From Candidatus Gottesmanbacteria bacterium (lineage in GTDB: Bacteria; Patescibacteriota; Microgenomatia; JAMCYU01), in NCBI GenBank assembly GCA_043801155.1, contig JAZDMI010000021.1:2683-66682 (forward strand): a stretch of DNA of 64,000 nucleotides, read 5' to 3'. This document shows positions 24,359 through 57,341 of this stretch, one piece after another (the stretch's first letter is position 1; each line of letters begins with the position of its first letter). The notes beneath the pieces were generated by a model. That model worked only from the letters and a program-made list of their open reading frames with translations. It was not told the DNA's origin and ran no database searches. A program made the translations under genes and the position numbers.

Positions 24359-24360
24359 AT

Positions 24361-25982: not shown

Positions 25983-26151
25983 AAGAGAGATATTCTACAT
26001 ATTTGAGTTATAATATACAAATTCTGCCAAATTCCCATCTCTAAATTTATCTATGTCTCGGATAATAACTCATTAAAATGTATAGGCCAGCCACGTACAG
26101 TCGCCGAAATCCCGTTAATTAGACCCATATTACGGTTATATTAACGGTATA

Positions 26152-26183
26152 TTGACAAAATATCGTTAATATGTTAACATATT
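26152..26183 (+). promoter_or_regulatory. Fic promoter (TTGACA -35) overlapped by a perfect 16-bp palindrome AATATGTTAACATATT abutting the start codon; putative auto-operator. Further TTAACG/CGTTAA motifs lie upstream (26111-26150)
   Basis: Palindrome verified by reverse-complementing. Confidence 0.5.
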
Positions 26184-27056: not shown

Positions 27057-27065
27057 GAGAAAATC

Positions 27066-27105
27066 AAAAAAGTCAAAAGAGAGGAAAGAGGAGAGAGAAA
27101 AATTT
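27066..27105 (+). repeat. purine-rich approx 40-nt leader repeat (AAAAAAGTCAAAAGAGAGGAAAGAGGAGAGAGAAAAATT), copy 1
   Basis: Direct repeat of 27583-27623; the pair flanks the GNAT gene. Confidence 0.6.
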
Positions 27106-27106
27106 A

Positions 27107-27577: not shown

Positions 27578-27582
27578 AAATT

Positions 27583-27623
27583 AAAAAAGTCAGAAGAGAG
27601 AGGAAAGAAGAGAGAGGAAAATT
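27583..27623 (+). repeat. purine-rich leader repeat copy 2 (AAAAAAGTCAGAAGAGAGAGGAAAGAAGAGAGAGGAAAATT) immediately before hsdM
   Basis: About 85 percent identical to copy 1. Confidence 0.6.
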
Positions 27624-30884: not shown

Positions 30885-30886
30885 TT

Positions 30887-31606
30887 ATGAAATATATAAA
30901 AAAGCTTAATATGGTTTGTTTTAACTTACTGGAACTGAAGACGCTATATAAGACTGACAAAGTAATAAAAATTCTTATAGAAGCAAATAAAACAAGGTGT
31001 AATATCGTTAATTCATCTAAAGAACAATCTAAAAAGATCGTAGATTCAGTCGTGAAAGGAGATTTAAAACAAAAGGAGGAAATTGAAATATTCTCGGCGT
31101 TAAGCTTATGTGCCTTATTTTTCGAGAATGATAGTTTTATAGGTTTCGTTTTGAAGGACGGCTATGATGTAGGAAAAAACCCAATACAAACATTAGAAGG
31201 TTTGAAAAAGGCTGCGAAAGAAGATACTCTTACTGATTTTGCAATTATCACCAAAAGTGGAATGCGAGAATTTCAGCTAAAACAATTTTATAGACAAAAA
31301 CTGGAGACGGAAGACCTTTTTAACTTTATAAAAGAAAAAATTGAACATTATGGTGGTAATTTTGGTACCACTGCTTTGTTATTCTCGGTTAGAGGTGATG
31401 GAATAGGACCTTGTCAAAGCAATATTTCTTTTAAAGAAATTCACGAGAGGCTTTGCAAACTTAATTTAGACAGAAATGGATTAATTTTGATTTGGTATAA
31501 TGATGGCAACAAAAAACAGGTGATAATTGAAGTTTATCCTGATTTATCGGCATGCCAAAAAGAAACAGGTATTCACGATCAAACAAAAAATACCCTATAT
31601 AATTAG
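30887..31606 (+). CDS. hypothetical protein embedded between hsdS and hsdR
   Basis: 3-nt gap after hsdS, 11 nt before hsdR; no Walker motif or known domain. Confidence 0.55.
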   Translation: MKYIKKLNMVCFNLLELKTLYKTDKVIKILIEANKTRCNIVNSSKEQSKKIVDSVVKGDLKQKEEIEIFSALSLCALFFENDSFIGFVLKDGYDVGKNPIQTLEGLKKAAKEDTLTDFAIITKSGMREFQLKQFYRQKLETEDLFNFIKEKIEHYGGNFGTTALLFSVRGDGIGPCQSNISFKEIHERLCKLNLDRNGLILIWYNDGNKKQVIIEVYPDLSACQKETGIHDQTKNTLYN

Positions 31607-31617
31607 ATCTAAAAATT

Positions 31618-33972
31618 ATGAACGAAGCAGAAACACGAGCCGAATATATTGATCCAAAACTGAAAGCTAGCGGTTGGGGAGAAGTTGAGGGATCAAAAGT
31701 ATTACGGGAATATCGTATCACCGAAGGACGGATTTTGGTTGGTGGAATACGTGCTAAACCGGAAATTGCTGATTATATCCTCGTATACAAAAACCAAAAA
31801 CTGGCAATTATTGAAGCAAAGCCGGATGAATCTGCCGTTACAGAGGGTGTCGCTCAAGCAAAAGTCTACGCCCAGAAGATGCAGATTGATTATACCTACT
31901 CAACCAACGGTAAAGAAATTTATCAAATTTCCATGAAATCCGGGAAAGAAGAGATTGTAGATGCGTTTTCGACCCCGGATGAGTTATGGAAAAAAGTGTA
32001 TTCAGATCAAAATGAATGGAAAGAGAAATTTGCTTCAATTCCTCTTGAGGGAGAATTAGGGAAACGATACTACCAGGAATCAGCCATTAATAACGTTATG
32101 AATGCGATTGCTGAAGATAAGAAACGAGTGCTACTTACTATGGCAACAGGAACCGGTAAGACAGCGATTGCATTTCAGACCTCTTGGAAGCTATATCAAA
32201 CGCGTTGGACTTTACAACGTGATGGAAATCGGCGTCCGAGAATTCTTTTTCTTGCCGATAGAAATATTCTTGCGGATCAAGCGTTTAATACCTTCGGTGC
32301 TTTTCCGGAAGATGCATTAGTTCGAATTAATCCTCTTGATATTCGGAGGAAGGGATTAGTTCCGATGAACGGAAGTATCTTTTTCACTATTTTTCAAACA
32401 TTTATGAGCGGACCGCAGGGAACACCTTATTTTGGTGATTATCCTCCTGATTTTTTTGATTTTATTGTCATTGATGAATGTCATCGTGGAGGAGCTAATG
32501 ATGAGGGAAACTGGCGCGGAATTTTAGAGTATTTTTCTCCAGCAGTTCAGCTTGGATTAACGGCCACACCAAAAAGAAGAGATAACGTAGATACATATAG
32601 ATATTTTGGCGATCCGGTATATATTTATTCACTTAAGGAAGGGATTAATGATGGATTTTTGACACCTTTTAAGGTGAAACGTATCCAAACAACCCTTGAT
32701 GAATATGTGTACACATCTGACGACCAAGTAATTGAAGGAGAAGTTGAAGCCGGTAAGGTATATAAAGAGCCTGATTTTAATAAAATCATAGAAATAAAAG
32801 AGCGCGAGGCAAAACGAGTTCAATTGTTGCTTGAGAATATAAACCAGAACGAGAAAACAATTGTTTTTTGTGCAACCCAGGATCATGCCCTAGCGGTACG
32901 GGATCTGGTAAATCAATATAAAAAAAGTAAAGATCCTTTTTACTGCGTCCGGGTAACGGCTAATGACGGAGCGCGTGGCGAGCAATATTTACGAGAATTT
33001 CAGGATAATGAAAAGACGATTCCTACGATATTAACCACTTCACAAAAGCTTTCTACTGGTGTTGATGCCAGAAATATCCGTAATATCGTTCTTATGCGTC
33101 CGGTTAATACCATGATCGAATTTAAACAGATTATTGGGCGTGGAACTCGGTTATTTGACGGAAAAGAATATTTTACAATCATTGATTTTGTTGATGCGTA
33201 TAAACTTTTTTTAGATCCTGAATGGGACGGCGAACCGATAGCGAATATTTGCCCAAAGTGTAACCAGGATCCCTGTATTTGCGAAAAAACTCCGCCGAAA
33301 GTTTGTCCTATTTGCGGGCAAAGACCGTGTATTTGTATTAGAGAACCAAGAATTTGTCCAATATGTGGAAAATTCCCATGTGAATGTGAATCAAAAAAGA
33401 AAATAAAAATAAAACTGCGCGATGGCAAAGAGCGAGAGATTCAACATATGATTTCTACTTCTTTTTGGGGGGCAGATGGTAAACCGATGTCGTCGGAGGA
33501 GTTTATTCAAAGCCTTTATGGAGTATTGCCGGATCTGTTTAAAAACGAAGAGGAACTTCGGAATATATGGTCAAATCCTGTGACAAGGAAACGATTTTTG
33601 GAACGGCTTTTTGATATTGGCATTGATTTAGAACAGATAGAAAATATTACCAAGATTGTTAATGCTGAACAATGTGATTTTTATGATGTGCTCTTGTATC
33701 TTGCATTTAGCAATCCACTCATTACACGTAAACAGCGGGCTGAGAAGAATAAAAATCATATTTTTGAAAATTTGTCTGATAAAGAAGGAGAATTTCTCAA
33801 CTTCGTACTGAAAAAATATGAAGAAACCGGATTTGAAGAACTTGACGAGGAGAAATTACCAATACTTCTGAATCTAAAATACCACGCTATTGCAGACGCA
33901 GAAGAAGCACTAGGAAATGTAGAAAATATTAGAGCAACATTCTTAGGATTTCAGGAAGATCTCTATAGCTAG
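31618..33972 (+). CDS. hsdR: type I R-M restriction subunit (PD-(D/E)xK nuclease plus SF2 helicase) with a C-terminal triple Cys-repeat
   Basis: ADYILVYKNQKLAIIEAK nuclease motif, TMATGTGKT Walker A, VIDECHRG DEAH box; three CPxCxxxPCxC repeats at approx 33247-33400. Confidence 0.9.
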   Translation: MNEAETRAEYIDPKLKASGWGEVEGSKVLREYRITEGRILVGGIRAKPEIADYILVYKNQKLAIIEAKPDESAVTEGVAQAKVYAQKMQIDYTYSTNGKEIYQISMKSGKEEIVDAFSTPDELWKKVYSDQNEWKEKFASIPLEGELGKRYYQESAINNVMNAIAEDKKRVLLTMATGTGKTAIAFQTSWKLYQTRWTLQRDGNRRPRILFLADRNILADQAFNTFGAFPEDALVRINPLDIRRKGLVPMNGSIFFTIFQTFMSGPQGTPYFGDYPPDFFDFIVIDECHRGGANDEGNWRGILEYFSPAVQLGLTATPKRRDNVDTYRYFGDPVYIYSLKEGINDGFLTPFKVKRIQTTLDEYVYTSDDQVIEGEVEAGKVYKEPDFNKIIEIKEREAKRVQLLLENINQNEKTIVFCATQDHALAVRDLVNQYKKSKDPFYCVRVTANDGARGEQYLREFQDNEKTIPTILTTSQKLSTGVDARNIRNIVLMRPVNTMIEFKQIIGRGTRLFDGKEYFTIIDFVDAYKLFLDPEWDGEPIANICPKCNQDPCICEKTPPKVCPICGQRPCICIREPRICPICGKFPCECESKKKIKIKLRDGKEREIQHMISTSFWGADGKPMSSEEFIQSLYGVLPDLFKNEEELRNIWSNPVTRKRFLERLFDIGIDLEQIENITKIVNAEQCDFYDVLLYLAFSNPLITRKQRAEKNKNHIFENLSDKEGEFLNFVLKKYEETGFEELDEEKLPILLNLKYHAIADAEEALGNVENIRATFLGFQEDLYS

Positions 33973-34061
33973 TTTTTTGCATTTTCTGTCCTTCCTAATT
34001 CAATCAATTTTTATTATGGCTTTTAATTAGAATTAGTGTTATAATAATAGTGGTTTAAGCG

Positions 34062-34110
34062 GTCTGCGTTTGGCAGACGACTATTGCAGCCTATCAGGGC
34101 TGCTTTTTTT
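34062..34110 (+). terminator. two hairpins (GTCTGC-GTTTG-GCAGAC; GCAGCC-TATCAG-GGCTGC) followed by T7: rho-independent terminator
   Basis: Perfect stems and U tract read directly. Confidence 0.7.
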
Positions 34111-34130
34111 ATGGAAGGAGGTGAAAAAAG

Positions 34131-34430
34131 ATGCAAATTGATAAAGATAAATCAACTTATGTTCTTCCGTATCAGGTAATAATTCTTGATGCGACTGATG
34201 CTTATTACTATGCAGATATAATGGATAATATGAAACTCTTTGATGAGACAGATTCATTATCTTTAGCAGAGAAATTGGCCGATGCTCTATTTATTGTATA
34301 TAACTATAAATGGAACAGTCTGGAAGAAATGAATAAGGTTGACGGAGGATATGATATAAGAGTTTATGATCAAAAATATTCTTGTGTCTATGCAGCTCAT
34401 AAGAAATATCTGAATAAATGGATAATCTAA
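34131..34430 (+). CDS. hypothetical protein (strong GGAGGTG RBS)
   Basis: RBS present; no known domain. Confidence 0.5.
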   Translation: MQIDKDKSTYVLPYQVIILDATDAYYYADIMDNMKLFDETDSLSLAEKLADALFIVYNYKWNSLEEMNKVDGGYDIRVYDQKYSCVYAAHKKYLNKWII

Positions 34431-34458
34431 CTGGTAAATAAAAGGATAAAATAAAAAT

Positions 34459-34902
34459 ATGAAAAAAAGTTACAGCGCCGGAGGATTGGTGGTTAATAAA
34501 TATGGTCAGATATTGGTTGTCAACCAATACGGAAACTCATGGTCATTACCTAAAGGGCATATTGAACCCGGAGAAGATATTTTGACTACGGCAAAAAGAG
34601 AAATCACCGAAGAATCCGGGATAACTGATCTAAAGTTAATAAAAGAGTTAGGGTCTTACGAAAGGCCGAGACTCGGATTAGACCCAAGAAATAATGACAT
34701 CTCGAAAGTAAAAAATATAACTCTTTTTCTATTTGTAACAGATCAACTCGAGACAAAACCTCAAGATTTAGACAATCCCGAGGCTATTTGGCTTAAACCA
34801 AGAAAAGCAGTTGGACGTCTGACGAGCAAGAAAGACAAGGAGTTTCTTCAAAAAAGTCTACGTTTGATAGATCTTAAAAAATTAATTAGCTTCACACCTT
34901 AA
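34459..34902 (+). CDS. NUDIX hydrolase
   Basis: Nudix box GHIEPGEDILTTAKREITEESGI. Confidence 0.8.
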   Translation: MKKSYSAGGLVVNKYGQILVVNQYGNSWSLPKGHIEPGEDILTTAKREITEESGITDLKLIKELGSYERPRLGLDPRNNDISKVKNITLFLFVTDQLETKPQDLDNPEAIWLKPRKAVGRLTSKKDKEFLQKSLRLIDLKKLISFTP

Positions 34903-34931
34903 AGGTGGACTAGGTTCACACCTTCTTCCTT

Positions 34932-34995
34932 TTGCCTTTTTGGGACGGCTGATTTAAATCACATTTTTGCATTTTCGTTTCTTCTGACCTAAACT
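34932..34995 (+). promoter_or_regulatory. two tandem copies of the island promoter module (TTGCCT-17-TAAATC; TTGCAT-17-TAAACT)
   Basis: Hexamers and 17-nt spacers read directly; ATG of the next gene at 35006. Confidence 0.5.
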
Positions 34996-35005
34996 TCAAG
35001 TAGAT

Positions 35006-35242
35006 ATGAATAGTCACGTAAGGTTTATAAAGGCAATTAATATCTGCCTTAAATATGACGAAATAAACACCCATTTACTTCAAAGAAAATTAATGATCGG
35101 TTATTCTACCGCACATATAATTTTCAAGAAACTAAAGGAATTAAAAGTTATAACCGGAGAAAAATATATCTATAATCCCTTTGGAAAAGTTAAAGTTGGA
35201 ACAGTTGACAAAAAGACTGCCAGGTTTTATTTAGTCAACTAA
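35006..35242 (+). CDS. stand-alone FtsK-gamma-like winged-helix DNA-binding protein
   Basis: THLLQRKLMIGYSTAHIIFKKLKELKVI resembles the FtsK gamma motif (SxLQRRLRIGYNRAARLIE...G). Confidence 0.55.
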   Translation: MNSHVRFIKAINICLKYDEINTHLLQRKLMIGYSTAHIIFKKLKELKVITGEKYIYNPFGKVKVGTVDKKTARFYLVN

Positions 35243-35261
35243 TAAATTTTGTAAATTTCTT

Positions 35262-35290
35262 TGCCTTTTTGAGTATGATGATCTAAACTG
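35262..35290 (+). promoter_or_regulatory. island promoter module TTGCCT-17-TAAACT
   Basis: As above. Confidence 0.45.
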
Positions 35291-35298
35291 GGATTAGA

Positions 35299-35814
35299 GT
35301 GGATATTGATATTAGTGGTCTTTTCAGAAAATCTTTCATTGACTCCTTACCCACCTTATTTTATTTATTAATTCCAATAATAATAATTTCAGGTCTGGTT
35401 ATTGCCATAAAAATTGGTTATTATTTTTACCGCCAGCATATCTATAATAAGGCCGGGTTGGATAAAATTGATAAAATGCCCGGTTACGTTTTTGAAGAAT
35501 ACCTTACAAATCTGTTTGCCCGGTTAGGTTACAGAGTAAATCATATTGGTAAGTTTGGAGATTTTGGGGGAGATTTAATTATCGAAAAAGATGGAATGAA
35601 AACATTAGTTCAGGCGAAAAGATCAAGTGATAGAATAAGAGAGAAAGCAATTCAGGAAGCCGTAACTGCAAAAGAGTACTACCATTGTGATAAAGCTATG
35701 GTAGTTACTAATAATTATTTTTATAAACATGCGTGGACGTTGGGCAAGGGAACAAATATAGACTTATGGGCAAGAAATAAATTGGCTGAAGTTATCTCTC
35801 AGAATATAAATTAA
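35299..35814 (+). CDS. membrane-anchored Mrr-type (Mrr_cat, PD-(D/E)xK) restriction-endonuclease-domain protein
   Basis: N-terminal TM helix; FEEYLTNLFARLGY...GDFGGDLI...LVQAKR catalytic-core pattern. Confidence 0.65.
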   Translation: MDIDISGLFRKSFIDSLPTLFYLLIPIIIISGLVIAIKIGYYFYRQHIYNKAGLDKIDKMPGYVFEEYLTNLFARLGYRVNHIGKFGDFGGDLIIEKDGMKTLVQAKRSSDRIREKAIQEAVTAKEYYHCDKAMVVTNNYFYKHAWTLGKGTNIDLWARNKLAEVISQNIN

Positions 35815-35819
35815 TTCTT

Positions 35820-35848
35820 TTGCCTTTTTGGGTCTGCTGATTTAAACT
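35820..35848 (+). promoter_or_regulatory. island promoter module TTGCCT-17-TAAACT
   Basis: As above. Confidence 0.45.
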
Positions 35849-35867
35849 AATATTATAGGAATATTCA

Positions 35868-36584
35868 ATGATTAAAATTAATACCACATTTATTAATACT
35901 TCTTCTGATAATTCTTCAAAAGGTTCTCCGGGGAATATACAATTTAACTTTAAATCATCATATTCTTTTAACAACAAATTATTATTTCATTTAGATTTTA
36001 AAGATCCTTCTCTCTATTTGCTATTATTTACAAATTTATCAACTATTTATTTTGCCTATATAGAACACTGGAATCTTTTAACAGTGATGTGGATATACTG
36101 GTTCCAGAGTATAATCATTGGTTTATTCACGTTTGTTAGACTAATAAACTTGCGAAATTATAATTCTCGGGCAATCTCTTTTATTATTAGTTATGGAATA
36201 TTTCATATGGGATTTCTGGTTTTTCTATTGTTAGGATTTTTAGGCAATGCTACTAGGGGAATAGTCTCTGAATTTGGTTTTGTTTTGATGTCCGCCTTTT
36301 TATTTTTCGTCAACCACTTATTTTCTTATTTTTATAATAAAGATCGTGATCAGGAAGGATTTATTTTTCACAAAGATGTAGATAGAATAATCTCGATTTC
36401 ATATATGCGTATAATACCCATGCATATAATAATTATTCTCGGGCAAATTATAACTTCAATTTTTTTATCGGAGGCAAGATACACTCTTTTTCTCTTTTTA
36501 TTTTTAAAGACTTATGCTGATTTATATTCCCATACACTTAAGCATACATCTGCTGCTTCGCCAATAGATGTAAAGAATTCTTAA
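35868..36584 (+). CDS. hypothetical polytopic membrane protein
   Basis: At least five hydrophobic helices; no known domain. Confidence 0.5.
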   Translation: MIKINTTFINTSSDNSSKGSPGNIQFNFKSSYSFNNKLLFHLDFKDPSLYLLLFTNLSTIYFAYIEHWNLLTVMWIYWFQSIIIGLFTFVRLINLRNYNSRAISFIISYGIFHMGFLVFLLLGFLGNATRGIVSEFGFVLMSAFLFFVNHLFSYFYNKDRDQEGFIFHKDVDRIISISYMRIIPMHIIIILGQIITSIFLSEARYTLFLFLFLKTYADLYSHTLKHTSAASPIDVKNS

Positions 36585-36596
36585 ATTTTATAATTT

Positions 36597-36625
36597 TTGC
36601 ATTTTCTGCCATTTTGATCTAGACT
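36597..36625 (+). promoter_or_regulatory. island promoter module TTGCAT-17-TAGACT
   Basis: As above. Confidence 0.45.
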
Positions 36626-36646
36626 TCGTAAACAAGAGGACCATAT

Positions 36647-37519
36647 ATGACTTTTAATCCAAATGCTGTTTTCATTTCTCCTTCATCCATCTCTGATTTT
36701 AAAACATGTCCACAAACTTATTATTATCGGAATGTCTATAGAAATCCGAAGACTGGATTAAAAATACAAATAATTAATCCAAAACTAGCGCTTGGTGCAA
36801 CAGTGCATGATATATTAGCTCAATTCCTACACACCCAGGGAATAGAAAAAACTAAAGATCAATTACTCAATATCCTTCAGAGATATTGGGGACAGATTAC
36901 TGGTGAAAAAGGAGGATTTAAAACAGAAGAGGAAGAAAAACAATACAAAGAAAGGGCATCAAAAATGTTGGATATTTTTTGGGGAAATAACCATTTTAGG
37001 GAGGTACAACCGGTAAAACTACCCGATTTCCCAAAGGTATATTTTGATGACGATTTAATTCTCACTGGAAAACTTGACTGGATTGAGCTAGAGACAGAAA
37101 ATAAATATCACATCATTGACTTTAAAACTGGAGAAAACGAAGAACGAAGCGATTCTATGCAATTACCTATTTATGCCGTTCTTGCTTCAAATATTTTAAA
37201 AACCTCTGAAATAAAAGCAAGCTATTGGTATCTTGATAGAGATGCCGACTTGAAAAAATTCGATCTGCCCGATTTAAAAGAAACAACAGAAAAACTTAAA
37301 AAAATTGGTTATGTAATTAAAAATAGTCGGTTAACAAATTCTTTTAAATGCAGTTCGGGATACGAGTCGTGTTGGTCTTGTAAAGATTTGCTATCCATTA
37401 GCAATGGAAAGGGTAAACTTGTTTCTGTTGATTACAATCGTAAACAAGAAGTTTATATAATTCCTCCAACAGAAGATAAGCCTATATTAGAAAAACCTAT
37501 TGATGACATTCCTTTCTAA
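36647..37519 (+). CDS. Cas4/RecB-like PD-(D/E)xK nuclease with a 1+3 cysteine (Fe-S type) arrangement
   Basis: N-terminal Cys (KTCPQ), D...IIDFKTGE core, C-terminal CSSGYESCWSC. Confidence 0.6.
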   Translation: MTFNPNAVFISPSSISDFKTCPQTYYYRNVYRNPKTGLKIQIINPKLALGATVHDILAQFLHTQGIEKTKDQLLNILQRYWGQITGEKGGFKTEEEEKQYKERASKMLDIFWGNNHFREVQPVKLPDFPKVYFDDDLILTGKLDWIELETENKYHIIDFKTGENEERSDSMQLPIYAVLASNILKTSEIKASYWYLDRDADLKKFDLPDLKETTEKLKKIGYVIKNSRLTNSFKCSSGYESCWSCKDLLSISNGKGKLVSVDYNRKQEVYIIPPTEDKPILEKPIDDIPF

Positions 37520-37547
37520 AGAATATGTTTATATCTTCTTCTTCTTT

Positions 37548-37576
37548 TTGCATTTTCTGACTTTCTGATTTAGACT
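37548..37576 (+). promoter_or_regulatory. island promoter module TTGCAT-17-TAGACT
   Basis: As above. Confidence 0.45.
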
Positions 37577-37612
37577 ATGGGTAACTATAGAAATTTAAAT
37601 TGGTGAGTAAAA

Positions 37613-37828
37613 ATGATAAAAATAAAAATTGCTGATTGGGAGAAAAAGAAATATCCGCTCGAAGATCCTAAAGATATTGAGGTTTTAGGGAAAATTCATG
37701 AATTGGAAAATCTTCCGCTTTCTTCCGAAGACAAGAAGTTGGTTAATTTTATCCGCACCCAACTTGAGGAAGATTGGCAAACTCCCTGTCTTAATTTCCT
37801 CGAAGATATCTTAAAGAAATATAGATAG
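37613..37828 (+). CDS. hypothetical small protein
   Basis: ORF with a GGTGAG RBS; no known domain. Confidence 0.4.
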   Translation: MIKIKIADWEKKKYPLEDPKDIEVLGKIHELENLPLSSEDKKLVNFIRTQLEEDWQTPCLNFLEDILKKYR

Positions 37829-37871
37829 AACCTAAAATTGCCTTTTTGGGTTTACTTTTTGAAACTGTTGA

Positions 37872-38795
37872 TTATTCAAACAAGCAGGCGACACCTAGAC
37901 AGTCTTTGCCGGTATAAACAGCCAAAACTTTGCCGGCCTCGCAGTAGTCAATGGCTTTTGGGCTTAGATTATATCTAGCGGCTAATAAATCAGTCATTTC
38001 CTGGGCTCTTCCCTCATTGTTGGTATGAGTAACCAGGGCTCTTTTGAGAACTTTTCCTTTTGCCTTTTCTTTTTCGATTAGTTCAATTATCTTTTCCGGA
38101 ATGCCTTTTTTACCTCGAGATAGAAGTTTAGGAATCAGCTTTGCTTCTTGTAGGTCAACAATAGGATACACTTTAAAAGCCATAGCCAAAGCTGCGACCG
38201 CTGTTCGTACGCCTTCCAGTCCTTCTTTAGAAATTCGCCTGCCCGCACTTTTTAGAAAATAAGCGGCATCGGACACGGCAATAAAAAGTTTAATATTTTG
38301 TGCCTTTAGCTCAAGTTTTCTGGATATTTCCTCAAAAGGTATATCTTGTTTTAAAAGCTCAATTGCTTCAGGAATGAGAATGCCTGCTCCGACAGAAACC
38401 GATTGGGTGTCCAAAACTTGAATTTTCATGTCGGGGTACTTACGTTTTATCGCTTCAGTCGCAGCGGTAGCACTATTAACCCCACAAGTTAAACGTACAT
38501 CCGAGAGGATAGTAAAGATTTCATTAATGCCAAAATGAGTAGCCAAACTTTCATAAGCCTTTTCGAACTGACCAAGATTAGCACCTGACGTATTAAATAA
38601 TTCCGCTGATTTTCCAAGACGATCATAAAAATCTGGTGTTTTAATTATAAAATCGGGTAATGGTTTTTCTTCGATAGTAATCCAGCTAGGAAGAGAAATA
38701 ACTCGTATCCCTGACTCGTTGCGAAAGTCAGCAGCCCGATGAGGGTCTAAAGAAGTAGTACTATCAGTTATCAGGGCTCGTTCCGGAGTAGCCAT
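37872..38795 (-). CDS. DegV-family (fatty-acid-binding) protein
   Basis: LITDSTTSL N-terminus; LSDVRLTCGVNSATAAT and VLDTQSVSVGAG blocks typical of DegV. Confidence 0.65.
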   Translation of the reverse strand: MATPERALITDSTTSLDPHRAADFRNESGIRVISLPSWITIEEKPLPDFIIKTPDFYDRLGKSAELFNTSGANLGQFEKAYESLATHFGINEIFTILSDVRLTCGVNSATAATEAIKRKYPDMKIQVLDTQSVSVGAGILIPEAIELLKQDIPFEEISRKLELKAQNIKLFIAVSDAAYFLKSAGRRISKEGLEGVRTAVAALAMAFKVYPIVDLQEAKLIPKLLSRGKKGIPEKIIELIEKEKAKGKVLKRALVTHTNNEGRAQEMTDLLAARYNLSPKAIDYCEAGKVLAVYTGKDCLGVACLFE

Positions 38796-38971
38796 ACTTT
38801 TTTCGGGTAAAAGGTTGGGATCACTGTAACAGAATTGGTTTCGCCAGTCAAATCCTTCTAAGAATTTTTACCCCGTACTAGTCGGTACGGGACTTCTTAA
38901 AATTGCCTTTTTGGGTCTTCGATAATAATCAAAATTTGTTGATTTGACGGGACAATATATAATAATAAGGT

Positions 38972-39277
38972 ATGAGAACACGGGCAGAAATTGAAAATAG
39001 GCCATCTTCCGGATCTAAATTAATAATTTGGAACAATGGACAGGGAAATTATTATGACTTTTTTAATTGTGGTGGAGAAAAAATACCAATAGAGGAGACT
39101 CTTGGGGGAGAACTATGTTTGCTTTGCGGGGTTGTTAGAGAACAACTAAAAAAGAATAACATCACCGGTTGTTTTACAATTTTTTCGTCCGACCTTCTTC
39201 CTGGTTCCAAAATTCAAGCAGCCACTAAAAAAGATTCAAAAGTAGCAGGAGTTCCCCTGATTCTTAAAATCTCCTAA
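38972..39277 (+). CDS. hypothetical small Cys-containing protein
   Basis: Preceded by the island promoter module (38903-38931) and an AAGGT RBS. Confidence 0.4.
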   Translation: MRTRAEIENRPSSGSKLIIWNNGQGNYYDFFNCGGEKIPIEETLGGELCLLCGVVREQLKKNNITGCFTIFSSDLLPGSKIQAATKKDSKVAGVPLILKIS

Positions 39278-39378
39278 GATTTAACTTTTTTTACATTAAG
39301 ATTAAGACGGGTGGAATTTTGAACGTGGTAGGTTCATATCTTAGGATTTTTGCATTTTATTTTTTCTAGTTTCTATTA

Positions 39379-41463
39379 CTAGTAAATTTTTGACCGGTAA
39401 TCAACAATCATTATTTCCAACTTACCCTCATCTCTCATTTTAAGTAAGACCCTTCCGCCGGAATGAATATGAGGTAGGGGAACTCTTAAACGATAAACCC
39501 CATCTGAATCCTCGATTTTAACAAGATGAGGATCTAAAATTTGCTGGCGTTTATTAAAATTAATAATAGCTTGTTGAACAAAACCTCTTTCTTCTGTAGA
39601 AAATCCTTTCATTAAAAGTTCCAGTTCTTCAGACGTCGGTTCGATGATCGTTAGTTTTCCGGTTAAAGCCTGTTCTTCTTCGGTGACTGGTTTTTCTTCA
39701 CCATCTTTTTTAATAGTTTCCCTTGTTTCTTCAACTCTTATCTGCCTTCTTAATTCATAGGTAACATCATGAAAATGCACTTTTGGCAGCGATGACTTGA
39801 GTGGTTCTTGATTACCGTCCTTAAGAGTGTTTTTTAATTTTTGATGTTCCAGATAATCCGCTAAGTGCGTTAAGGTTTTCAGTACAATTTCCTGGCAACC
39901 TTGTTTGTAGATATGGTTATTGGATTCATTGATCGAATCAAGAACCATCCAGTCAAAAGTCTCTTTTGTCGCATCGATGCTTAAGAGAAGAAAAATTTCC
40001 TCATCTTCTTCACTTGTTTTATCTATAAACTCAAATGCCATACCAAATTTACGGGGATGATAAGGATCTGCTATGAGAGAAGCAGCGTCAGGTTTTTTTA
40101 AAAATTGTAAATTATTTGGTAATTGATCAGCATCTAAACTAAATTTTCTTTCCTTGTTAGTCTTAGTAATTCTGTCTATCTGTCTCTTGACCTCTTGCCA
40201 ATTAAAATCATTATCTGTTTCGGATATTTCTTCATTCGCTAAAATGTCTTTTAATTCTTCACCGCTAAGGACTATTTGTGCCAGTCTCATTTTTTTCCGG
40301 TAGTTTTCGATATTTTCAACTAGCTTCTTATAAAAAGGAATACTCGTTTCCTTTTTAACCAAATTTGTAGCTGCACGGTAGAATCCAATCGTTTGTATGG
40401 CAGAATTAAAGCCAAGGAGTAAAAATAAATATCGGCGATGATAAGTATTTTCGTCCTGGAGGTATTTCTCAAAAAGATTGATAAGTTCCATATCAGGTTG
40501 GCCATCTTTAGGAAAAAGACGCCTAAAGACTTCTTTTCTTAGCAGGGACAATTTATCTACCAGCTCTACTGCTTTTTCTACAATTTCAGTTGCTGGCTGA
40601 CTATTGGACCTAACTGCTTCTTGAATGTCTGTTTTAGAGATATCTGCCTTGAGGAATTGTGCTACTCTAACGCTAAATTGTGCAAAATCTCCCTCAATTG
40701 CCAAAGGATAATATTTAAGTAAAGGATTCCGGCTGATTTGTTCAGCAATAATATGTTCAGGTAGTTCTTCAAACGGTTCAATAGCTGATGACTCTACAAA
40801 TAAACGGACAAAAGGTACTAAGGATTCACGATCTTTATTAGAAAAGTTCATAAATTCAATTAATGAAGCTCCTTGAATAGAAAAATTAGTATGAGTTGAA
40901 TATTGATAATCGGAAAGAGTAAAGAAGTCTTCAGCCCCTTGATAAAAATTTCTCGTCTGGGCGAATCGTTTTAGTGAATTAATCTTTCCATGGCAATATA
41001 AAGAGAGCCCGAAATCCAATGCAAACTTGATACCTCTTATTTTACAATTTTTCCAGGATAATTCGGTGTCCTCGTTTAAAGACGAAGCTGGTTCGCCATC
41101 GGGAACTTTTTCCAGAAAACCATAGGCATTTTGCATATCATCTTGGATTTGTATTAGCTTTTTACTCCAGTCTTCAGTTGTTTCCCATCCGAAAGGGTTA
41201 ACTGTATCAGTTAAAGACTTAATATTATTTCCAAATTCATTTTTTTGCTTCATGGCTCGTATCAAATATTCTAGATAAGTAGGAACTTTCTTTTTCATAT
41301 CGTCTGTAAATACCTGATCCATATTTTTAAATAAATCTGATTCTAAAAGTGATTCAACGGTAGGCAAGTTAGTAGAATCCTGGTCTTCCGCCTTATCCAG
41401 GAGGTAGCCTTTAAGTGCGTTATCTGGGCCTTCAATATAATCTATTTCAAACTTAGCTGACAT
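39379..41463 (-). CDS. large (694 aa) hypothetical protein, no recognisable domain
   Basis: Long clean ORF, acidic N-terminal region, no nucleotide-binding motifs found. Confidence 0.6.
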   Translation of the reverse strand: MSAKFEIDYIEGPDNALKGYLLDKAEDQDSTNLPTVESLLESDLFKNMDQVFTDDMKKKVPTYLEYLIRAMKQKNEFGNNIKSLTDTVNPFGWETTEDWSKKLIQIQDDMQNAYGFLEKVPDGEPASSLNEDTELSWKNCKIRGIKFALDFGLSLYCHGKINSLKRFAQTRNFYQGAEDFFTLSDYQYSTHTNFSIQGASLIEFMNFSNKDRESLVPFVRLFVESSAIEPFEELPEHIIAEQISRNPLLKYYPLAIEGDFAQFSVRVAQFLKADISKTDIQEAVRSNSQPATEIVEKAVELVDKLSLLRKEVFRRLFPKDGQPDMELINLFEKYLQDENTYHRRYLFLLLGFNSAIQTIGFYRAATNLVKKETSIPFYKKLVENIENYRKKMRLAQIVLSGEELKDILANEEISETDNDFNWQEVKRQIDRITKTNKERKFSLDADQLPNNLQFLKKPDAASLIADPYHPRKFGMAFEFIDKTSEEDEEIFLLLSIDATKETFDWMVLDSINESNNHIYKQGCQEIVLKTLTHLADYLEHQKLKNTLKDGNQEPLKSSLPKVHFHDVTYELRRQIRVEETRETIKKDGEEKPVTEEEQALTGKLTIIEPTSEELELLMKGFSTEERGFVQQAIINFNKRQQILDPHLVKIEDSDGVYRLRVPLPHIHSGGRVLLKMRDEGKLEIMIVDYRSKIY

Positions 41464-41576
41464 TTTTTTATTTTATCATATTTATTTCGTTTTCCTTTAT
41501 AGTAAAGAATAAACCTATACTTTTGCATTTTCTTTTCTTCAATATTTCCAATAATAATGATAAAATAAACAACAAT

Positions 41577-41843
41577 ATGGTGCGGATAGAAAGTAAGTGT
41601 CTGCCCGACGGGAAAATGTTGAATATTCAATATCAGACGTCAGAAGGGCTTACAAATTTTTTTAACATCCTTTTATGTGCTGCCAGTAGAATTCCCAAAG
41701 GGAGTCCAATATATCCTCAAGCACAAATAGTTTTACAACAAATACAAGCTTTTTCTGAAGGTTCGGATGAGCCGTTTGATGGAATTGCCATAGCCAAGGT
41801 TTTAAAATCTGCTAAGTCAATTAGACCCCCAAAACAAAATTAA
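41577..41843 (+). CDS. hypothetical small protein
   Basis: The ORF-track start at 41523 is the TTG of a TTGCAT promoter hexamer; first in-frame ATG at about 41577. Confidence 0.35.
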   Translation: MVRIESKCLPDGKMLNIQYQTSEGLTNFFNILLCAASRIPKGSPIYPQAQIVLQQIQAFSEGSDEPFDGIAIAKVLKSAKSIRPPKQN

Positions 41844-41909
41844 GAATTTGACAAATCCTTGCCTTTTTCATATAAAATAGGTAAAATCCAGGTAAATAAA
41901 GGAGGCTAT

Positions 41910-42107
41910 ATGTGTCAAAAGCAGGAAGCAGATGAAGAATCAGGTGATGGAATGATGTTTGGCGGAATGATAATAGGAAGACTGGATCAAGATACGTCTT
42001 GGTCAAAATACGCCATGGAGAATTTAGAACCTGAGCAAAAAGAACGACTTATTGAATCAGTTAGAATTCAGAAGGTTCGTCCAAAGGTTAATCCCCAAGT
42101 CAAATAA
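41910..42107 (+). CDS. hypothetical small acidic protein
   Basis: AGGAGG RBS then ATG (MCQKQEADEE...). The ORF-track start at 41859 is the TTG of a TTGCCT promoter hexamer. Confidence 0.4.
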   Translation: MCQKQEADEESGDGMMFGGMIIGRLDQDTSWSKYAMENLEPEQKERLIESVRIQKVRPKVNPQVK

Positions 42108-42138
42108 GAACCTCGTTATTTTTTGCATTTTTACTCAT

Positions 42139-42417
42139 ATGATTGAAAATCTGGGGCAGGCTATTTCTCAAGCACAGGCAGATGGATTTATAACCGAAGA
42201 ATACGGTAGGCTTATCTTAGATACAGCTAAGCTAGAATATCGTGAATGCCGGAATTGCCCTCTCCCTAATTTGTGGCGTGAGTTTTTAGAAGATCAAGGA
42301 CCATACCCGGTTTTAACCCTTGACCTTTTGTTAAAAAATATTGCTGAAAGACGAATATATTTTAGAGAGAAAGGTTGGCTTCCGCCCGATGAACCATCAC
42401 TAATTAATATTAAATAG
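42139..42417 (+). CDS. hypothetical small protein
   Basis: Promoter module TTGCAT at 42123 lies inside the longer ORF-track call (42052); ATG at 42139 follows it. Confidence 0.4.
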   Translation: MIENLGQAISQAQADGFITEEYGRLILDTAKLEYRECRNCPLPNLWREFLEDQGPYPVLTLDLLLKNIAERRIYFREKGWLPPDEPSLINIK

Positions 42418-42454
42418 CCATTTAACTTTTGCCTTTTTCTGATAAAATAAATAG

Positions 42455-43198
42455 ATGAATAATTCTAAAAAAATTAAGGATATTGTAAAAAATTCTTACG
42501 CAGAAATTGCTAAAGCCTCTGATAGTTGTGGGTGCAGTTGTGGTTGTAGTTCTAACCAGACTGTTCAACGCCAAACACAACAAATAGGTTATTCCCCGGA
42601 AGAAATTAATCAAGCGCCTTCCGGTTCTAATCTTGGGCTTGGATGTGGCAACCCGGTGGCAATTGCTTCATTAAAAGAAGGGGAAATAGTTTTGGATTTA
42701 GGTTCCGGCGCAGGATTTGATGCTTTTTTAGCAGCGCAAAAGGTTGGGACAACGGGTAAAGTCATTGGTGTTGATATGACTGAGGAAATGCTTGTCAAAG
42801 CACGAGCTAACGCTATAAAAGGTGGTTTTACCAACGTTGAGTTCAGAGAAGGAGATATTGAAAATTTGCCCTTAGATGACAACTCGGTTGATGTTGTTAT
42901 TTCTAATTGCGTTATCAACCTTAGCCCGGATAAAGAAAAAGTATTTAAGGGAATTTATCGGGTACTTAAACCAGGTGGAAGACTCATGGTATCTGATACT
43001 GTACTTTCAAAACCATTACCGGATGAACTGCGGGAAAATGAAGAATTATTAACCGGATGTGTAAGTGGAGCTATCCTTAAAAAGGATTACCTGTCATTAC
43101 TCCAAAAAACAGGCTTTTCCAATATAAAAATACAAAAAGAAAGACCGGGGTTTCTTGCAGACTACAGTATAAGTATTACCTACTCAGCAGTCAAATAA
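42455..43198 (+). CDS. class I SAM-dependent methyltransferase, ArsM/UbiE-like, with an N-terminal CGCSCGCS motif
   Basis: [12 protein letters not shown]-binding motif; paired Cys as in arsenite methyltransferases. Confidence 0.7.
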
Positions 43199-43222
43199 CC
43201 CTGTACTAGTCGATTCGGGACT

Positions 43223-43251
43223 TTGCATTTTTTCAGGTTTTAGTTTAATCT
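43223..43251 (+). promoter_or_regulatory. island promoter module TTGCAT-17-TAATCT, directly preceded by a GTACTAGTCG-containing hairpin motif (43199-43221)
   Basis: As above. Confidence 0.45.
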
Positions 43252-43270
43252 GAAAATAGGACTTAAATTT

Positions 43271-43606
43271 ATGACCGAAATAATATATAAAACAAAATTT
43301 TTTTGTAACCTTTGCAAAAAAGATATTCCCCTGGAATTATATGGTAATAAAAACACTGAATTTACACGTGATCAGGAGCCGGAAATAATTACTCCAGGGA
43401 AGCATTACCACTGGGTTGATTTTCACCGTGTTTGTGCAATTTGCGGTCAACCAATCAAAGCGCAGGATTTAACCGTGGCGATGAATGACGGGATGATCAA
43501 AATTAATGAAAATTATACTGATGAATATAATATGATTGAACAAGGAAATAAATTCGGTGTTTTTCTCATTGTCCACAAAGAATGCGTCAAAAATATTAAG
43601 TTTTAA
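43271..43606 (+). CDS. hypothetical zinc-ribbon protein (CNLC...CAICGQ...HKEC)
   Basis: Cys pairs; no known domain. Confidence 0.45.
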   Translation: MTEIIYKTKFFCNLCKKDIPLELYGNKNTEFTRDQEPEIITPGKHYHWVDFHRVCAICGQPIKAQDLTVAMNDGMIKINENYTDEYNMIEQGNKFGVFLIVHKECVKNIKF

Positions 43607-43686
43607 TAAAATGTTGGCATAACTTCATATCCTTCCTTTTTATCTTTTTGTTTCTTCCAATATTAGTTTTTTGCCGATGAGTTATA

Positions 43687-57312: not shown

Positions 57313-57341
57313 TTGCATTTTTTGGGCTCTTGAATTATAAT
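57313..57341 (+). promoter_or_regulatory. rplC-operon promoter TTGCAT-17-TATAAT
   Basis: Consensus hexamers with a 17-nt spacer. Confidence 0.55.

Follow-up and report, generated by a model that had tools for sequence, protein, structure and literature searches.

Promoter-like modules repeated along a variable island of a Candidatus Gottesmanbacteria chromosome as candidate recombination boundaries

This work describes a family of stereotyped, predicted sigma-70-type promoter modules in a Candidatus Gottesmanbacteria genome. In the reading that we consider somewhat probable, these modules would double as recombination boundaries and form a bacterial analogue of phage promoter-early stem-loops (PeSLs). 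Direct support comes from the statistics of the motif, the conservation of the rplC promoter, the modules found before unrelated genes in relatives and the breakpoints that lie on modules. The window, i.e. the whole stretch of 64,000 nt that was analyzed, stems from a CPR MAG and encodes rpoB/C, tuf and r-protein operons, so that it represents chromosome and not the genome of a T4-type phage.

A repeated box in a variable island

The island (Table 1) is a hypervariable accessory and defence region between a type I restriction system and engB/obg. According to the ORF list it comprises 16 genes, 14 on the + strand and two on the - strand. Searches in Pfam, NCBIfam, PADLOC and PHROGs identified NUDIX, Mrr_cat, DUF6498 and PD-(D/E)XK Cas4-like nuclease domains and, below the Pfam cut-off, an FtsK-gamma-like winged-helix (wHTH) match in a small protein. 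Also encoded are DegV (-) and ArsM, a 694-aa ORFan (-) and a number of small ORFans. For the 694-aa ORFan, neither these databases nor structure comparison gave a matching family or solved structure. None of the island genes was found at syntenic loci of related genomes.

The box TTGC(A/C)TTTT (TTGCMTTTT) occurs 22 times in the window versus 5.0 expected (maximum of 10 in 100 shuffles), and the related box TTGCKTTTT occurs at chance level (5 observed versus 5.05 expected). The stretch 33977-43231 contains 16 of these copies, each of them on the + strand, of which 15 are intergenic. The one at 38060, inside the DegV gene, was missing from the sequence-only reading and is probably due to chance; the coordinates in that reading were all correct within 1 nt (35262 is 35261). 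It had also attributed an own copy to nearly every island ORF, which is borne out when gaps of 30 nt or more are compared: the exact box is present in 14 of 15 such gaps within the island versus 1 of 33 elsewhere in the window (Fisher p = 4.5e-10). The sole box-bearing gap outside the island is located upstream of the rplC operon (57313), and the fifteenth island gap (43640) holds a degenerate copy instead of an exact one. When a weight matrix trained on the 15 intergenic island copies was scored over the whole window, these copies reached at least 16 bits and the remaining window at most 13.4 bits, with three exceptions: rplC (21.7 bits), the box within the DegV gene at 38060 (21.4 bits) and position 44155 on the - strand in the engB coding region (18.0 bits). 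Three mechanical ORFs (37838, 41523 and 41859) begin on the TTG of a box, as the earlier remark on mis-started genes had it.

Table 1. Coordinates of the island, its modules and associated features in the window
Feature	Position	Strand	Description
Module-punctuated variable island	33973..43686	+	9.7 kb; between hsdR (ends 33972) and engB (starts 43687)
Module 1	33977..34005	+	A-type box TTGCATTTT; -10 part decayed, 1-nt insertion; 5 nt past hsdR stop; 29.5 bits
Module 2	34932..34960	+	C-type box TTGCCTTTTTGGGACGGCTGATTTAAATC; first member of tandem pair with module 3; near-match geometry
Module 3	34967..34995	+	Full, TTGCAT-17-TAAACT; ATG 35006 is 10 nt beyond -10
Module 4	35261..35289	+	Full, TTGCCT-17-TAAACT; GTG 35299 is 9 nt beyond -10
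Module 5	35820..35848	+	Full, TTGCCTTTTTGGGTCTGCTGATTTAAACT; ATG 35868 at 19 nt downstream; 40.3 bits
Module 6	36597..36625	+	Full, TTGCAT-17-TAGACT; ATG 36647 at 21 nt downstream; AGAGGA ribosome-binding site before ATG
Module 7	37548..37576	+	Full; 20 nt past box 85 % identical to L115 module 14990 (closest relative)
Module 8	37838..37866	+	Orphan; aimed at 3' end of convergent DegV gene; poor -10 GAAACT
DegV gene	37872..38795	-	Inverted; + strand modules 8 and 9 on either side; own TTGACT-17-TACAGT promoter (38851-38823)
Module 9	38903..38931	+	Box only; stable hairpin upstream at 38872-38891 (-13 kcal/mol, z = -2.8)
Module 10	39350..39378	+	Orphan; aimed at 3' end of convergent 694-aa gene; without credible -10
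694-aa ORFan	39379..41463	-	Inverted; + strand modules 10 and 11 on either side; own predicted leaderless TGATAAAAT promoter
Module 11	41523..41551	+	Box only; two divergent TGATAAAAT extended -10 promoters around it
Divergent extended -10 pair around module 11	41470-41478 (-) and 41558-41566 (+)	- and +	Positions read off the sequence
Module 12	41859..41887	+	TTGCCT-17-TAAAAT; AGGAGG ribosome-binding site before ATG 41910
Module 13	42123..42151	+	TTGCAT-16-GAAAAT; in-frame ATG 42139 within module, 16 nt after box start
Module 14	42429..42457	+	Box, shortened spacer; arsM ATG 42455 at 26 nt from box start
Extended -10 in module 14	42440-42448	+	TGATAAAAT; 6 nt before arsM ATG; geometry read off the sequence
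Module 15	43223..43251	+	TTGCAT-17-TAATCT; ATG 43271 at 19 nt downstream
Degenerate module	43640..43668	+	TTTATCTTTTTGTTTCTTCC; last island gap, before engB; 10.2 bits
rplC operon promoter	57313..57341	+	TTGCATTTTTTGGGCTCTTGAATTATAAT; only module copy outside island

Promoter geometry and the likely reader of the box

In a complete module, a T run and the -35 hexamer TTGC(A/C)T would be followed by a T tract and a pyrimidine-rich spacer (17 nt overall, frequently with CTGAT at its end) and then by the -10 hexamer TA(A/G)ACT or TATAAT. The exact arrangement TTGCMT-N17-TARACT is found in five copies (34967, 35261, 35820, 36597 and 37548) versus 0.04 expected, and the copies at 34932, 37838, 41859, 42123 and 43223 are near-matches. 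At 33977, 38903, 39350, 41523 and 42429, no usable -10 is present at 16-18 nt from the box. The earlier statement that each copy has a 17-nt spacer and a TAAACT/TAGACT hexamer therefore holds as worded for the five exact copies only, is approached by the five near-matches and fails for the other five. If a credible -10 hexamer at 16-18 nt is required, no more than 5 to 8 of the 15 copies qualify, the others having kept the box alone. Likewise, conservation well beyond the hexamers is confined to the full-module subfamily and does not extend to all copies, for which identity after the box is 0.40 versus 0.29 in shuffled sequence. In at least three cases (33977, 41523 and 42429) a separate extended -10 promoter (TGnTAnAAT type) follows the box-only copy, so the box is dispensable there as a -35 element.

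Upstream of rplC, the box and the -10 are conserved in four genomes (window 57313, L110 9860, L112 9923 and L116 5089), where TTGCATTTT and TATAAT are separated by 17 nt (18 nt in L116). The spacer sequence drifts between the genomes, and mean identity after the box among these orthologous promoters is 0.39. Given its place before a conserved ribosomal-protein operon, the box is likely read by the housekeeping sigma factor and, judged from the sequence, represents a genuine -35 region for the polymerase of the host. The general pattern of a TTGnnn -35 and a TAnnnT -10 at 16-18 nt is also seen in each of the four rplC promoters and in some 20 copies of relatives and metagenomes. The reading of the modules as promoters, which had been put forward for each copy, thus stands at the sequence and comparative level for about half of the window copies. 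Other promoters in the window are of the TTGACA, TTGTAT or TTGCTT type, so that the motif does not precede most genes, and the condition under which the sequence-only reading was to be given up is not borne out.

We infer transcription from the modules, and often leaderless transcription, from their spacing to the genes. Across the window, the relatives and the metagenome contigs, 34 modules have a TA...T hexamer at 16-18 nt; in 12 of them, the start codon of an ORF of 40 aa or more follows the -10 after 6-12 nt, and in seven more after 17-23 nt, several of the latter with a ribosome-binding site. The shorter distance implies leaderless mRNAs, as does the TGATAAAAT element 6 nt before the arsM ATG for arsM. 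In the proposed model, the modules would fire monocistronic, often leaderless mRNAs and head almost every gene of the region.

The layout also resembles that of canonical sigma-70/sigma-A promoters, with a TTGnnn -35, a 17-nt spacer, a TAnnnT -10, a T tract after the -35 and a G-containing stretch before the -10; this corresponds to the general four-part spacer of strong promoters, i.e. a T tract, a GC-ish stretch, a T tract and a G-rich stretch (PMC12641261). Unlike canonical promoters, the -35 is TTGCAT or TTGCCT with only 3/6 matches to TTGACA, the TG is located 3 nt before the hexamer and hence outside the extended -10 position, and the copies form a recognizable repeat family clustered in one region. 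An alternative-sigma promoter (sigma-54, ECF or phage-encoded) is not supported. The island module sequences have no GG 10 nt upstream of the box GC (the GG-N10-GC spacing of sigma-54), the island encodes neither a sigma factor nor a phage RNA polymerase, and the same box heads the ribosomal-protein operon. Together with the lack of any module copy in viral contigs (IMG/VR), this speaks against the phage- or ECF-sigma-type promoter that the sequence-only reading named as a check.

Modules and breakpoints in relatives

In the closest relative, whose L3 and Obg are 81 % identical to those of the window, full modules recur: within 3.6 kb there are seven box copies on the same strand, and the window matrix gives five of them 16 bits or more. 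The small genes that follow these copies are non-homologous and adjoin defence genes, and one copy points at a convergent gene. The gene content of the L115 module cluster differs from that of the window island. Tandem pairs akin to 34932/34967 are present in L115 (15022/14990) and L116, and modules also head conserved genes (a DEAD helicase gene in L115 and a PD-(D/E)XK gene in L123). A strict 22-position pattern retrieved 16 metagenome contigs, about 10 of them with additional shared consensus, and the block CTGAT(T/C)TA(A/G)ACT is conserved across genomes. No modules were found near obg in the more distant relatives L134 and L136. Orphan copies, which face convergent genes, are not restricted to 37838 and 39350, the two that had been reported as possible sources of antisense RNAs and that indeed point at - strand genes, but also occur at L115 12939 and L129 676 (with a perfect TAAACT).

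In about four comparisons, a small sample, homology blocks and indels between relatives end on modules. L120 and L121 share 588 nt at 98.6 % identity, consisting of a module, a 166-aa ORF that reads as NUDIX from its signature motif and a 30-nt 3' UTR. This block starts at one T-run/box and stops at the next, between unrelated flanks; the homology continues for 30 nt behind the stop codon, and on the other side the intergenic DNA is unrelated over 25-45 nt. In L115, a 3.3-kb five-gene segment is located between two modules that are 17 nt apart in L116. Next to a Zn-ribbon gene, the box is the point at which synteny is lost in a comparison of four genomes. The suggestion that the module may be a cassette boundary or recombination site, offered earlier as a possibility, appears from these alignments to be the best-supported additional claim of the sequence-only reading. 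Since modules largely fill the short intergenic gaps, some coincidence of breakpoints and modules is expected anyway. Unlike the prediction of a simple box-to-box crossover, the L115/L116 indel leaves two tandem boxes and no single hybrid box.

As the same 13-30 nt are repeated in direct orientation at every junction, we propose that the modules are also places of DNA exchange. Units of a module and its gene would be inserted, deleted or replaced via recombination within modules or at their edge, the likely mechanism being short-homology recombination, possibly following DNA uptake. Insertion of a circle with one module would place a + strand module on either side of any cargo, even of an inverted gene that has its own promoter, which would account for the N+1 pattern as well as for orphan copies. 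Against this, 13-30 nt of shared sequence are few for a RecA-type process.

Alternative readings, known systems and implications

The modules could instead be optimal housekeeping promoters only, alike through convergent selection, in an island that is merely monocistronic and whose tiny gaps force breakpoints into them. We consider this unlikely, albeit with a real chance. It agrees with the box at the rplC promoters, with the relatives' modules before conserved genes, with the equal identity after the box in window copies and orthologous rplC promoters, and with a spacer that follows general promoter rules (PMC12641261). It does not explain why the exact 9-mer persists in 14 of 15 gaps of the island, including those in which the -10 is lost or a separate promoter is present, why three or four orphan copies face convergent genes, or why the L120/L121 homology passes the stop codon by 30 nt, yet has both ends on a T-run/box; the different -35 boxes at other window promoters also speak against it. 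An operator of a dedicated DNA-binding protein (regulator, silencer or alternative sigma) that co-regulates the island, with the extra conservation as its site, would suit a box kept independently of the -10, the conserved CTGAT(T/C)TA(A/G)ACT block and the small FtsK-gamma-like protein encoded in the island. Still, this is improbable: the rplC operon would hardly share a regulon with accessory genes, the motif lacks dyad symmetry, the wHTH gene has no homologue beside the relatives' modules and the geometry suits the primary sigma factor.

Uniform orientation at every junction whatever the gene orientation, tandem 'empty' sites and cassette-sized units ending at the box would be expected of a dedicated integron-like, site-specific cassette system with an unrecognized recombinase. 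Such a system is very improbable given that no integrase, transposase, serine recombinase or other recombinase domain was detected in the ORFs scanned (23-52 kb of the window), that the modules are asymmetric, without attC-like imperfect inverted repeat or dyad symmetry, and that they have promoter geometry, with one site being a conserved r-protein promoter. No tRNA was found either. Least credible of all are 3'-end signals, i.e. terminators or processing sites of the upstream gene, even if modules begin 4-30 nt past a + strand stop codon, contain T runs and are in a few cases preceded by a hairpin (window 38872, L124 and L131). Most copies have none: folding against shuffles yielded one clearly stable hairpin (38872-38891), a marginal one at 34896-34935 and two others that fold no better than shuffled sequence, and only one terminator-like site exists on the + strand of the island. 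Moreover, copies 38903 and 41523 have no + strand gene before them, and the tight spacing from -10 to start codon and the rplC conservation favour initiation. A bolder extension of our own reading seems quite doubtful, namely that the T-run plus TTGC(A/C)TTTT box is the dedicated crossover/insertion site of a previously unrecognized, integrase-less CPR cassette system, in which cassettes with their own promoter would move between cells (e.g. by DNA uptake), integrate at any resident box and build chromosomal defence/accessory arrays.

Promoter modules that double as boundaries, as we propose, would most closely parallel PeSLs, the 'mobile regulatory cassettes' of T4-type phages (Arbiol et al. 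2010, PMC2839356; Comeau et al. 2014, PMC4122927). In either system, the repeats are modules of ~30-100 nt around a strong sigma-70-like promoter that begin directly behind the stop codon of the preceding gene, cluster in hyperplastic regions and precede small ORFan/accessory genes. In both, indels and replacements between close relatives end on modules, and genes between two modules in one genome correspond to one or adjacent modules in another. An upstream stem-loop is present at some copies here (L124, L129 and L131 among the metagenome copies; the L129 hairpin is shared with window 34905), but the stem-loop/terminator half is missing from most, with one or two convincing cases among the 15 window copies. 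The modules also differ from PeSLs in residing on a bacterial (CPR) chromosome, with no IMG/VR copy, instead of in phage genomes, in their TA(A/G)ACT -10 and in the many mRNAs predicted to be leaderless rather than to have a ribosome-binding site. Excised mini-circles with one chimeric module are a further PeSL trait.

Integron cassette arrays (attC, IntI) similarly consist of single-gene units between uniformly oriented repeats, may contain inverted genes and vary in content among relatives. They differ by their IntI, their attC-like imperfect palindrome and their GTTRRRY core, all missing here, and most of their cassettes lack a promoter and carry attC 3' of the gene, whereas the present repeat is a promoter 5' of each gene. 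Boundary or linker sequences of mosaic phages, mycobacteriophage stoperators and start-associated sequences are other oriented, short intergenic junction repeats tied to mosaicism or regulation. These are phage elements that are repressor-bound or without promoter geometry, unlike the modules, which have no repressor or phage context.

CPR/Patescibacteria are mostly uncultured and, to our knowledge, almost nothing is known about their promoters or the exchange of accessory genes in their small genomes. Should the modules be promoters only, they would still aid annotation, as automated gene prediction wrongly opens ORFs at the TTG within the box. If the proposed reading is correct, it would provide a concrete promoter consensus for a Microgenomates lineage, with a strong hint of many leaderless mRNAs, and the module would serve as a sequence handle for variable gene cassettes in metagenomes. 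Repeated regulatory cassettes would then also be recombination substrates that deliver new genes ready for expression, and a mechanism described only for T4-type phages would also shape a defence/accessory hot spot of a bacterial chromosome.

Gene content of the island and distribution of the box

The window, chromosomal DNA of an uncultured Candidatus Gottesmanbacteria (CPR/Microgenomates) MAG, has genes of rpoB/C size together with fusA, tuf, rpsJ and an operon of ribosomal proteins from rplC to rpsH, and its GC content of ~0.37 drops to 0.30-0.34 at 35-37 kb. The genes of the island (33973-43686, between hsdR and engB) and its flanks are listed in the table below. The 694-aa ORFan was without a match in Pfam, NCBIfam, PHROGs, PADLOC and PDB sequences, and the homologue search with DegV returned solely the DegV protein itself. 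A look-up of contigs encoding proteins of the window gave no entry. Integrase, transposase and tRNA genes were looked for in the window and none was found. An Rfam scan of the window gave zero matches at the gathering score and only noise at permissive thresholds.

Genes of the island and its flanks, and sites of extended -10 elements
Feature	Coordinates	Strand	Remark
Type I restriction-modification system hsdM/S/R and two extra ORFs	27624-33972		left flank of island
99-aa ORFan			island
NUDIX hydrolase			island
78-aa FtsK-gamma-like winged-helix protein			island; score under Pfam cut-off
Mrr-type nuclease			island; membrane-anchored
DUF6498 membrane protein			island
Cas4-like PD-(D/E)XK nuclease			island
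71-aa ORFan			island
DegV		-	island
101-aa ORFan			island
694-aa ORFan	39379-41463	-	island; largest island gene
Three small ORFans			island
ArsM			island; NCBIfam 349 bits, cut-off 263
111-aa Cys-rich protein			island
EngB, DUF192, Obg			right flank, after island
Extended -10, TGATAAAAT or TGATATAAT	41470-41478	-	
Extended -10, TGATAAAAT or TGATATAAT	41558-41566	+	
Extended -10, TGATAAAAT or TGATATAAT	42440-42448	+	
Extended -10, TGATAAAAT or TGATATAAT	~1310-1340	-	on contig L129
Extended -10, TGATAAAAT or TGATATAAT	upstream of 50878	-	

The box, TTGCMTTTT, occurs 22 times in the window against 5.0 expected and at most 10 times in each of 100 shuffles; the sister pattern TTGCKTTTT is at chance frequency. 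Sixteen copies fall within 33977-43231, all on the + strand whichever way the adjoining gene runs, and 15 of the 16 are intergenic. The other, at 38060 inside DegV, is probably a Lys-codon accident. On a crude gene map, with island gaps of at least 30 nt, the exact 9-mer was present in 14/15 island gaps versus 1/33 gaps elsewhere in the window (Fisher p = 4.5e-10), and the 15th island gap (43640) has a copy with two substitutions. In a weight matrix built from 15 copies, all 15 score at least 16 bits over a window background of 13.4 bits, which is exceeded at three other sites: the rplC promoter (21.7 bits), the intragenic 38060 (21.4 bits) and 44155 on the - strand inside engB (18.0 bits). 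These counts bear out the repeated intergenic module described in the sequence-only reading, and the module family is real, highly non-random and lineage-specific. A DNA-uptake-sequence or Chi-like reading of the box was ruled out, as all the copies are intergenic and fall in a single 9-kb region.

Putative promoter elements, hairpins and leaders

The sequence-only reading had also placed TTGC(A/C)T, a 17-nt spacer and TA(A/G)ACT at each copy. This makes the set more regular than it is: the geometry is exact in five copies (expected 0.04) and nearly matched in about five, and in the other five a usable -10 is missing at 16-18 nt. Conservation beyond the hexamers, also noted in that reading, reaches up to 85 % over 20 nt in some copies; over all copies the mean pairwise identity downstream of the box is just 0.40 versus 0.29 in shuffled sequence, and extended conservation is therefore a property of a subfamily.

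Upstream of rplC the window reads TTGCATTTTTTGGGCTCTTGAATTATAAT, and the arrangement is also found in three relatives (L110, with L3 81 % identical; L112, L3 72 %; L116, Obg 75 %). All four genomes carry TTGCATTTT, followed by a 17-nt spacer (18 nt in L116), TATAAT and a conserved leader, and the spacer sequence differs. The retention of both boxes with spacer drift at an orthologous housekeeping operon marks a real promoter, which the primary sigma factor would read, and the comparison is the strongest evidence for the box as a promoter element. In the island modules, the spacer opens with a T tract after the -35, passes through a GC-containing stretch into a second T tract, and closes with a G-containing stretch ahead of the -10. 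This layout agrees with the four-part spacer that is reported across bacteria and can change promoter strength several-hundred-fold (PMC12641261). Among 34 modules collected with a TA...T hexamer at 16-18 nt, the start codon of an ORF of at least 40 aa lies 6-12 nt past the -10 in 12 and 17-23 nt past it in seven more, several of the latter with a ribosome-binding site ahead of the start (AGAGGA, AGGAGG, GGAGG). The 6-12-nt spacing would imply leaderless or nearly leaderless mRNAs.

The motif does not stand uniformly before most genes, as it would, by the sequence-only reading's own refutation test, if it were just the housekeeping consensus: other promoters of the window use TTGACA, TTGTAT, TTGCAC or TTGCTT boxes, which makes the module one specific type of promoter. 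From rplC conservation and -10-to-start spacing, about half of the copies have good support as promoters. A generic promoter/terminator scan was uninformative because TTGCAT scores 3/6 against TTGACA. Two other readings were ruled out: sigma-54 for TTGCA, as GG is absent at -24, and an extended -10 for the TG in CTGATnTAAACT, which lies 3 nt rather than 1 nt ahead of the hexamer.

Several copies are unlike simple promoters. The orphan modules 37838 and 39350 each point at a convergent gene and into its 3' end, DegV in the first case and the 694-aa gene in the second; both of these inverted genes have their own promoters on the - strand (TTGACT-17-TACAGT for DegV and, as read from the sequence, TGATAAAAT 6 nt ahead of the ATG for the 694-aa gene). 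Modules 33977, 41523 and 42429 are accompanied by a separate extended -10 promoter nearer the gene (TGTTATAAT at 34037, TGATAAAAT at 41558 and 42440, the last 6 nt ahead of the arsM ATG), and the ATG at 42139 falls within module 42123. Given these separate promoters and orphan copies, practically all junctions retain the box, usable as a -35 or not. The extended -10 elements are found repeatedly at 5-10 nt from a start codon downstream, which suggests that leaderless mRNAs may be widespread in the lineage; those at 41470 and 41558 are arranged as an inverted repeat that would drive the divergent genes on either side.

A CTAG-loop hairpin upstream was ruled out by folding as an obligatory part of the module, only 38872-38891 being clearly stable, and the island has one + strand terminator-like site. 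Directly 5' of two modules lies a 26-nt repeat (38870-38895 and 43198-43223; ACCC(C/T)GTACTAGTCG(G/A)T(A/T)CGGGACTT, 88 % identical), and a related element, GGTGGACTAG(G/A)TTC(A/G)CACC, precedes module 34932 and module 1374 of contig L129; only the 38872 copy folds stably. At 34037-34110, between module 33977 and the ORF at 34131, the TGTTATAAT promoter is followed by a compact two-hairpin RNA (-25.4 kcal/mol, z = -3.4) that ends in an intrinsic terminator (GCAGCCTATCAGGGCTGC + T7). It has no Rfam match and may act as a small RNA, or else as a leader that attenuates the ORFan-NUDIX pair.

The rplC operon has a leader of ~120 nt (57342-57466), conserved in the window, L110 (9889-10000), L112 and L116, which reads GATATGGAGGTGAT...GGTGCAGTCGGCACC plus a T run, with a terminator-like hairpin right before the start codon. 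It matches no Rfam family above noise and looks like an r-protein autoregulatory attenuator. L3 itself (57467-57904) is only 145 aa in the window and its closest relatives, many homologues from the same search having ~200-230 aa; the mechanical ORF start (TTG 57437) over-extends the gene. Elsewhere in the window, two intergenic regions (24359-24550 and 25983-26183) share a ~55-nt repeat, GATATTCTACA..TTATAATATACAAAT.CTG, holding a - strand TTGTAT-17-TAGAAT promoter ahead of two small - strand genes (23984-24358 and 25620-25982) that match nothing in Pfam. The window thereby has another duplicated promoter region, unrelated to the module.

Relatives and rearrangement end points

Around the island, the core genes keep their synteny with relatives (S10, MazG and acetyltransferase on one side; Obg, DEAD helicase, LytR, YceG, a 474-aa protein and L3 on the other), and the content between them is wholly different in each: an EcoRI-type methylase and GmrSD/HNH in L116; a methylase, GmrSD, SIR2 and a Shedu-like protein in L115, the closest relative. 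Apart from one 26 % PD-(D/E)XK match, no homologue of the island proteins was found in the syntenic loci. L115 has seven same-strand boxes in 3.6 kb (15923, 15627, 14990, 14345, 13821, 12939, 12324), five of which score at least 16 bits on the window matrix, and a degenerate tandem copy at 15022. Its modules head unrelated small genes, one copy reads TTGCATTTTCTGCCTTCCTGATTTAAACT, and 12939 lies opposite a convergent gene. Modules are absent across 21 kb around obg in the more distant L134 and L136 (Obg 71-75 % identical).

A JGI metagenome scan with TTTGCMTTTTYN8TGATYTARACT returned 16 contigs, ~10 of which share the further consensus tttTTTGCATTTTyyyyyyyCTGATTTAAACT; the rest resemble chance or other-taxon matches in GTDB genomes. 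Reading of the translations, without family search, gave NUDIX-like, PD-(D/E)XK-like (twice), cytidine-deaminase-like, restriction-endonuclease-like, SufC-like and small Cys-rich proteins as cargo. With TTGCMTTTTYN8TGAYYTARAY, the GTDB representative genomes, among whose matches the window's own genome does not figure, yielded 102 single matches in unrelated taxa, which is chance level (~69 expected), and no arrays, and IMG/VR yielded seven isolated matches in coding-like contexts, none of them a real copy, for which reason a phage origin was dropped.

Homology between relatives ends at boxes in three comparisons. Contigs L120 and L121 share a block of 588 nt (98.6 % identity) that starts at the T run of a module, takes in the -10, a 166-aa NUDIX-like ORF and a 3' UTR of 30 nt, and stops at the T-run/box of the next module; outside it they are unrelated: on the left, intergenic DNA is non-homologous over at least 25-45 nt, and on the right the two contigs have different module bodies. 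Between modules 15627 and 12324, L115 has an extra 3.3 kb in which five genes and four further modules lie; the homologous flanks of this segment adjoin in L116, with the two boxes only 17 nt apart. For the Zn-ribbon gene (50345-50878), conservation among the window, L115, L122 and L129 includes the gene's own TGATATAAT promoter and stops at a box (TTGCMTTTT in the three relatives, TTGCTTTTT in the window), beyond which the gene differs in each of the four genomes, that of L129 being inverted opposite a perfect module. Tandem modules, found in three cases (window 34932/34967, L115 15022/14990, L116 12292/12275), could be emptied junctions. The cassette boundary or recombination site, which the sequence-only reading raised as a possibility, finds direct but limited support in these comparisons.

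On a larger scale, rpsJ (S10, 22704-23012) follows tuf, yet lies ~34 kb from rplC (57467); the distance to L3 is 5 kb in L112 and ~16 kb in L116, and the interval appears to be a hot spot for accessory/defence genes and rearrangement. Obg and the DEAD helicase are divergent in the window and convergent in L115 and L116. The acetyltransferase gene (27107-27577; 82 % protein identity to its L116 counterpart) is flanked on both sides by purine-rich direct repeats of ~46-50 nt (AAAAAAGTCAAAAGAGAGGAAAGAGGAGAGAG...; 27057-27106 and 27578-27623). A GIY-YIG nuclease-like ORF of ~88 aa (..VYILKSKKDGNLYTGSTNDLKRRIEEHNSG..; 23030-23300), absent from ORF lists made at 90 aa or more, lies between rpsJ and the MazG-like gene.

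Proposed module-mediated exchange and alternative explanations

We propose that the module is a portable promoter. Because modules recur in direct orientation, they would offer short homology (13 nt identical, up to ~30 nt similar) through which [module + gene] units may be lost by deletion, perhaps in circular form, may insert again at any other module, or may be replaced when DNA taken up from relatives recombines by double crossover. A one-module circle would integrate whichever way its cargo faces, leaving the cargo between two + strand modules; this would give N genes their N+1 modules and explain why orphans lie beside the 694-aa gene and DegV.

The modules might instead be just the lineage's best promoter, with breakpoints falling there by default. 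The gaps are short, such that some coincidence with modules is expected, and the sample of breakpoints is small; at the same time, boxes are kept at junctions where they are not needed as a -35, and we consider this explanation unlikely. A simple crossover would produce one hybrid box, which is not what the L115/L116 junction shows. That the box or module is the operator of a regulator or the site of an alternative sigma factor is improbable: retention of the box independently of the -10 would suit it, and the rplC comparison points to the primary sigma factor. Sites of an integron-like site-specific system would fit the end points at boxes, but neither a recombinase nor an attC-like structure was found, which makes them very improbable. 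Least credible is a role as 3'-end signals, which the T runs of the modules would suit and the start codons shortly past the -10 would not.

Exchange through portable promoters as proposed here has been proposed, and partly demonstrated, for the promoter-early stem-loops (PeSLs) of T4-type phages (Arbiol et al., PMC2839356; also PMC4122927). In the searchable literature we found such modules described neither for CPR bacteria nor for bacterial chromosomes. In contrast to PeSLs, the present modules reside in a bacterial chromosome, mostly have no stem-loop half, and many of their transcripts would be leaderless. By analogy, the modules may be rated as a variant of the PeSL-like regulatory cassette.
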